Source: Escherichia coli (GTDB taxonomy: Bacteria > Pseudomonadota > Gammaproteobacteria > Enterobacterales > Enterobacteriaceae). Taken from it: DNA of 64,000 nucleotides. Positions within the stretch are counted from its first letter, which is position 1. Each line of letters starts with the position of its first letter. The notes below the pieces were generated by a model. That model did no database searches and was not told where the DNA came from. It saw only the letters and a program-made list of their open reading frames with translations. Of this stretch, positions 58,110-58,520 are shown one piece after another. Both the position numbers and the translations under genes were made by a program. The stretch lies in assembly GCF_041248615.1 (NCBI RefSeq), contig NZ_CP158426.1; one strand, written 5' to 3'.

Positions 58110-58520
58110 GTTGTTTGTTTTCCCTTGAAGTCCTTAACGACAAATATCGTTATAAAAAAATGCCAAGCGACACGAGACTAATTACCTGGGCATGTTGAAA
58201 CAATTCCTTAAGGCCAAATCTGTGGACTAACGCACAAAATTATATGCTGTGAGGATAATCTACCGCCGAGGCAAAACGAGTTCGAGATTACCCGATTGGT
58301 GCGGTCTTGGCGAGCGGTTTTACATGATTTTTTATAAGAAAAAGTGATACAGAAAGTTAATAAGCGGGATTGGTCAATTAAAGTACGATTGAGTGAAACG
58401 CATGCAATCCATTCATTTACTTAGAGAATGATTTTTGCGCGCGATGGATGAAAGCACGGTGCGCATCATCAGGATTATCCTCACTATAAAAATAACCCTG
58501 ATGATGTTAATTACTGTGAG

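Follow-up and report, generated by a model that had tools for sequence, protein, structure and literature searches.

The inverted repeat that lies between lpxT and mepS in Escherichia coli is likely to encode the 3′-terminal stem-loop of the yeiR-lpxT and lpxT mRNAs, an end-defining and exonuclease-blocking structure of the U-less class. It is a terminator-type stem-loop that has no U-run in Escherichia, an ordinary and understood kind of element. The class is already known; the lpxT hairpin itself is individually undescribed.

The repeat and its fold

The window analysed here, a 64,000-nucleotide stretch of E. coli DNA, runs in reverse orientation to K-12, with lpxT and mepS on its minus strand (Table 1). 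The spacer between the two genes aligns without gaps to K-12 MG1655, where it lies between lpxT (2268854-2269567) and mepS (2269979-2270545), and at 95% identity or above it has a match in 5,420 of the 5,426 complete E. coli genomes. The hairpin sequence is identical in K-12 (2269582-2269624). It is single-copy, occurring at a median of one place per genome across 5,425 E. coli genomes.

Table 1. Features of the lpxT-mepS interval, in window coordinates.
Feature	Position	Strand	Remarks
lpxT CDS (PAP2 family)	58521-59234	-	hairpin would close its 3′ UTR
mepS CDS (NlpC/P60)	57543-58109	-	411-nt spacer to lpxT
43-nt RNA hairpin	58464-58506	-	5′ arm 58506-58487, UAG loop 58486-58484, 3′ arm 58483-58464; 20 bp including 4 G-U
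Outer 5′ arm CAUCAUCAGG	58497-58506	-	perfect 10-nt repeat; portion common to E. albertii and Citrobacter
Outer 3′ arm CCUGAUGAUG	58464-58473	-	partner of outer 5′ arm
Term-seq 3′ end equivalent	58461	-	K-12 2269627(+) mapped onto window; 3 nt past last paired base
Promoter-like match TTAACA-16 nt-TATAGT	58483-58510	-	inside hairpin; -10 hexamer Escherichia-specific
C-rich, G-poor stretch	58301-58404	-	sense strand, downstream of hairpin; C/G 2.6-3.0 in 78-nt windows
mepS P2 start	58278	-	K-12 2269810
mepS P1 start	58169	-	K-12 2269919

The perfect arms of the repeat are 10 nt long (CATCATCAGG at 58464-58473 and CCTGATGATG at 58497-58506) and enclose a spacer of 23 nt. A repeat search lengthens them to 15 nt with one mismatch, at 58464-58478 and 58492-58506, now 13 nt apart. 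Transcribed from the minus strand, which is the sense strand of lpxT and mepS, the 43 nt fold into a continuous 20-bp stem with a 3-nt UAG loop when G-U pairs are allowed. Within a 76-nt context the hairpin has an energy of -25.8 kcal/mol and a z-score of -5.34; no shuffle among 200 was as stable. The plus strand through the repeat folds less regularly and reaches -23.8 kcal/mol only by drawing in flanking bases. After the stem, the minus-strand tail reads CGCACCGU and holds one U in 8 nt. The U-rich tract of 7-8 nt that follows directly on the stem of a canonical terminator is thus missing in E. coli, and a consensus terminator scan of the region did not call the hairpin.

The original prediction described a nine-bp perfect inverted repeat with a 26-nt spacer, spanning 58461-58505. 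The repeat is real, although its arms are longer and its spacer shorter than was thought, and its measured extent is 58464-58506. Its placement just downstream of lpxT was correct, since the hairpin starts 14 nt past the stop codon (58521-58523). The prediction also held that no clean U-run follows on the minus strand and that the element is not a canonical intrinsic terminator, and for E. coli the tail bears out both statements. Folding of both strands, which had been proposed as a check, gave the regular hairpin on the minus strand.

The window as a whole contains 31 perfect 10-nt inverted repeats with spacers of 3-30 nt (about 13 distinct loci), against 1.8 ± 1.7 in dinucleotide shuffles, an excess of approximately 17-fold. 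One such 10-nt repeat could arise by chance (one or two per window), and the repeat alone carries no decisive weight. That the hairpin is not a chance structure follows from the folding z-score taken together with its conservation across genera, which is accompanied by covariation.

An Rfam scan of the region gave nothing beyond chance hits (E > 0.3), all to miRNA and snoRNA families of eukaryotes. A 103-aa open reading frame on the plus strand (58435-58746) runs over the repeat. Most of it is antisense to lpxT and no Pfam family matches it, and it was rejected as a gene. Between the lpxT stop codon and the hairpin lies a minus-strand motif, TAATTAAC (58505-58512), which is conserved in 60-77% of genomes from many genera and places TAA codons in both the +1 and the +2 frame of lpxT.

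Variation and conservation of the hairpin

The outer 10 bp of the stem are invariant in the E. coli strains sampled. Position 58496 is polymorphic within the species: K-12 and the window have G, which forms a G-U pair, and O157 and other strains have T or C, which leaves a mismatch. In E. albertii the same position is A, giving an A-U pair, and the partner U is fixed. Both E. albertii and a divergent Escherichia have other sequence in the inner half of the stem. In E. coli 20A24 (L085) an IS1A element sits within the 3′ arm of the hairpin, between lpxT and mepS (NZ_CP147044.1, 4341121-4341778). The hairpin is therefore dispensable in at least that natural isolate.

Conservation was assessed in 80 mepS loci, one genome per species, from about 30 enterobacterial genera. 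lpxT lies upstream of mepS in 79 of the 80 and the length of the spacer is maintained at about 410 nt. In about 70 of the genomes a hairpin occupies the same position beyond lpxT, which supplies the conservation among relatives on which the original prediction had been made to depend. The commonest form is AUCAGGGAUCG-UUUU-CGAUCCCUGAU. Citrobacter carries CAUCAUCAGGGAU...AUUCCCUGAUGAUG, in which the outer stem is as in E. coli. Salmonella arizonae has unrelated sequence at the same place, yet it too forms a stem, of 16 bp.

An alignment and a covariance model were built from 29 of the genomes with the hairpin. The model matches at locus positions of approximately 2100-2140 almost everywhere. 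It gave no match at E ≤ 1 in the window or in loci L002-L004, because the loop and inner stem of Escherichia are much longer. That the E. coli hairpin is homologous is judged from where it lies and from its outer stem, which it shares with Citrobacter. Within the 29-genome alignment, 11 of the 14 stem pairs show changes on both sides, and the base pairs are kept by compensatory substitutions, as they are in conserved structured RNAs. Paired cells amount to 83%, and sliding the partner by 1-3 columns lowers this to 28-49%. The covariation score was reached by 0 of 500 shuffles; the sequences are related, so this count is not a probability, and the slide control agrees with it.

These data bear on the suggestion, made in the original prediction, that the repeat is a protein-binding dyad in the DNA, that is, an operator for a dimeric regulator controlling mepS or lpxT. 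Such a role would suit a near-perfect palindrome located within a long, deeply conserved intergenic region and overlapped by a promoter-like site. An operator would, however, be expected to keep its half-sites and to lie at or near the promoter that it regulates. Here the arms covary in a manner that keeps the pairing and not the sequence, with CAGGG replaced by UAGGG, CGGGG, CAAGG, CAGAG or GAGGG alongside matching partners, and the Salmonella stem is unrelated in sequence at the same place. The repeat is situated downstream of lpxT and 187 and 296 bp upstream of the mapped mepS starts, and in many genera the hairpin bears the T-run of a terminator on the sense strand. We consider an operator scarcely credible, and the dyad half of the prediction is not supported.

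Of 70 genomes, 18 have the T-run (at least 6 of 8 positions) after the hairpin on the sense strand and only 2 have one in the antisense direction; E. coli has 1 of 8. The sense-strand carriers include Klebsiella, Kluyvera, Siccibacter, Yokenella, Trabulsiella, Cedecea and some Enterobacter. In these genera the hairpin is an ordinary intrinsic terminator of lpxT. The Escherichia and Citrobacter hairpins have no T-run.

A first comparison of folding between strands appeared to favour the sense strand (52 versus 12, and 47 versus 11 for G-U pairs), but it was biased, as the boundaries had been chosen on that strand, and it was set aside. With fixed symmetric windows the sense and antisense counts were 35 and 31 (p = 0.12), which is no strand preference across species. 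The assignment of the hairpin to the lpxT sense strand therefore has its basis in the mapped 3′ end and in the T-runs seen in other genera, and not in an asymmetry of wobble pairs.

Some loci depart from the common arrangement. In a Pluralibacter metagenome-assembled genome (L076, 2011-2140) lpxT is deleted except for a remnant of 17 codons; the hairpin is kept downstream of yeiR, and a T-run follows 16 nt later. At L032, L038, L043, L056 and L069 (approximately 2095-2142) the lpxT frame appears to continue to about 2133-2138 and would cross the conserved hairpin located by the covariance model.

Transcript ends and starts in the lpxT-mepS interval

Published Term-seq data from K-12 place an RNA 3′ end at 2269627(+), where it is classed as an 'orphan' and the sequence shown is that of the hairpin (Adams et al. 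2021; PMC7815308, Supplementary file 1, LB 0.4). The end is a C within CGC, three bases past the last paired G. The original prediction had asked for a transcript 3′ end related to the structure, and this one adjoins it. The peak is weak, at about 1,300 reads, which is near the lowest values of the table, and it is present at LB OD 0.4 only and not at LB OD 2.0 or in M63 (PMC7815308). The bicyclomycin table from the same study (PMC7815308, Supplementary file 2) lists no Rho-termination region at 22695xx-22700xx, where the weak expression of lpxT makes the power of detection low. A canonical terminator would place the end 7-9 nt past the stem, in a U tract, and the published end at +3 does not conform to this.

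The mapped end is also relevant to RNase III, whose minimal substrate is a duplex of about 20 bp. The uninterrupted E. coli stem, at approximately 20 bp, comes near this length and could be a cleavage site that controls decay or processing of the lpxT mRNA. We regard this as improbable. Only E. coli has so long a stem, those of relatives being 10-16 bp, and the staggered cuts of the enzyme would fall inside the stem, whereas the mapped 3′ end falls outside it.

SMRT-Cappable-seq resolves the region into separate transcription units, namely yeiR-lpxT (TSS 2267795), lpxT (TSS 2268825) and mepS (TSS 2269810 and 2269919; end 2270620) (Yan et al. 2018; PMC6131387). The lists from that study contain neither an lpxT-mepS co-transcript nor a transcription start near the hairpin (PMC6131387), and the interval is likewise empty in the Cappable-seq tables. 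Both mepS starts correspond to promoters, P2 and P1, described by Elgrably-Weiss et al. 2024 (PMC10798246). Since the mapped mepS starts are a further 187 and 296 nt downstream of the hairpin, the hairpin is outside the mepS mRNAs. The original prediction had offered, as its other possibility, an RNA element in the upstream region of mepS. RNA was the right category, and the location has to be revised, since the element is part of the lpxT transcript, at its 3′ end, and not of the upstream regulatory region of mepS.

The motif TTAACA-16-TATAGT could be taken for a third, upstream mepS promoter with a start near 58476, which would make the palindrome incidental. It agrees with the sigma-70 consensus at 10 of 12 hexamer positions and is the sole promoter-like match in 2 kb; that single match is below the 4.1 expected from shuffles. 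The inner stem, in which the -10 hexamer falls, is not conserved, and no such hexamer occurs outside Escherichia. The only mepS starts in SMRT-Cappable-seq are 2269810 and 2269919 (PMC6131387), and two promoters are reported in PMC10798246. A third promoter at this site is, in our view, very unlikely.

The inner stem takes part in a second, long-range inverted repeat. Its two copies (GTGAGGATAATC / GATTATCCTCAC, at 58249-58260 and 58473-58484) match perfectly over 12 of 12 positions, are 212 nt apart and lie in the mepS P2 leader (+18 to +29) and in the 3′ arm of the hairpin; the naive chance expectation within the spacer is about 0.01. This pairing was rejected as probable chance, in that other Escherichia alter the hairpin copy, the distal copy stays constant and there is no compensation. 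The 10 additional pairs of the inner stem, which are peculiar to E. coli and bring the duplex to 20 bp, might be a target of RNase III, or might let the lpxT 3′ UTR pair with the mepS leader, in trans or, on rare read-through transcripts, in cis; we attach almost no credence to either. If true, pairing of the 3′ UTR with the leader would couple lipid A modification to the expression of a peptidoglycan endopeptidase.

Two further observations concern the mepS side of the spacer. From 58110 to 58420 it contains blocks that are more than 90% conserved over about 30 genera, within an overall length that is kept at about 410 nt. One such block, CTTTCTGTATCACTTTTTCTTATAAAAAATC (58352-58322), is positioned just upstream of the -35 region of mepS P2. 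These blocks look like regulator or UP-element sites. In each of the three growth conditions Term-seq also locates 3′ ends at about 58113-58115 (K-12 2269973/2269975), which is 4-6 nt before the mepS start codon; these ends are not Rho-dependent (PMC7815308). They may reflect processing, or protection at a ribosome or OxyS binding site.

Proposed role and comparison with known systems

We propose that the hairpin acts as the 3′ stem-loop of the lpxT mRNA. As Escherichia and Citrobacter have no U tract, the hairpin alone probably terminates poorly in these genera. RNA polymerase would be likely to continue some way into the untranslated, C-rich and G-poor spacer, where it would be stopped by Rho or by inefficient release driven by the hairpin. 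The 3′-to-5′ exonucleases PNPase and RNase II would then trim the tail back to the hairpin. In this way the hairpin would set the steady-state 3′ end, shield the lpxT mRNA from decay and keep lpxT transcription apart from the downstream mepS promoters. The next 100 nt after the hairpin contain 28 C and 16 G, and C exceeds G in 57 of 63 genomes, figures that describe composition only. The C-rich, G-poor stretch listed in Table 1 is a possible candidate for the Rho loading region.

Alternatively, the hairpin may itself be a weak, non-canonical intrinsic terminator that brings about release without a U tract, Rho and trimming being uninvolved. The orthologous hairpins that are canonical terminators in other genera, the very stable stem and the lack of any Rho region at the locus in the PMC7815308 table would all accord with this, as would the 'transition state' terminators mentioned by Dar & Sorek (PMC6061677). 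It is harder to reconcile with a tail of 1 U in 8, with the consensus terminator scan that made no call, or with a mapped end 3 nt from the stem where 7-9 nt, in a U tract, is usual. A search of the TERMITe supplementary files also brought up neither lpxT nor the coordinates of the hairpin, which is weak evidence because the files may omit terminators. We regard release by the hairpin alone as possible but rather unlikely.

An end-defining lpxT stem-loop has value for annotation, in that it would mark the true 3′ boundary of the yeiR-lpxT operon, and it would explain an 'orphan' Term-seq peak in published data. lpxT and mepS would be insulated from one another. Current understanding is left unchanged by the lpxT hairpin.

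The hairpin can be compared with three known kinds of element. Like the REP palindromes that stabilise mRNA 3′ ends, it lies between genes, at the 3′ end of one of them, and is a palindrome of a type able to block exonucleases. Unlike them, it is single-copy where REP elements occur in many copies, and it has neither a REP sequence nor an Rfam match.

Canonical intrinsic terminators resemble it in position, strand and the hairpin itself, a stable stem-loop downstream of the gene on the sense strand, and the orthologues in Klebsiella, Kluyvera, Siccibacter, Cedecea and Yokenella have both the full hairpin and the T-run. The E. coli element differs from them in the single U among the 8 nt after the stem and in a mapped end at +3, outside any U tract.

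The closest likeness is to the U-less stem-loops of Dar & Sorek 2018, who reported precise ends for Rho-dependent E. coli transcripts, located directly after stable stem-loops without a U tract (PMC6061677). In their data such stems protect against PNPase and RNase II, and C-rich Rho loading sites lie just downstream (PMC6061677). The lpxT hairpin is likewise stable, comes after the stop codon, has no U-rich tail and has a 3′ end adjoining the stem, with an excess of C over G downstream that is evidence of a compositional kind. Its stem is longer and richer in A/U and G-U pairs than is typical of the published examples. The hairpin fits every feature of the class that can be read at the level of sequence, and from this fit we infer the action of Rho and the trimming. 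Dar & Sorek also predict that terminators switch in evolution between the U-less and intrinsic forms, in both directions, through the gain or loss of U's (PMC6061677). The cross-genus series at lpxT looks like this predicted switching of terminator class by U content. It would provide a natural example in which intrinsic and U-less, presumably Rho-assisted, terminators are interconverted by gain or loss of the U tract whilst the stem-loop is kept.
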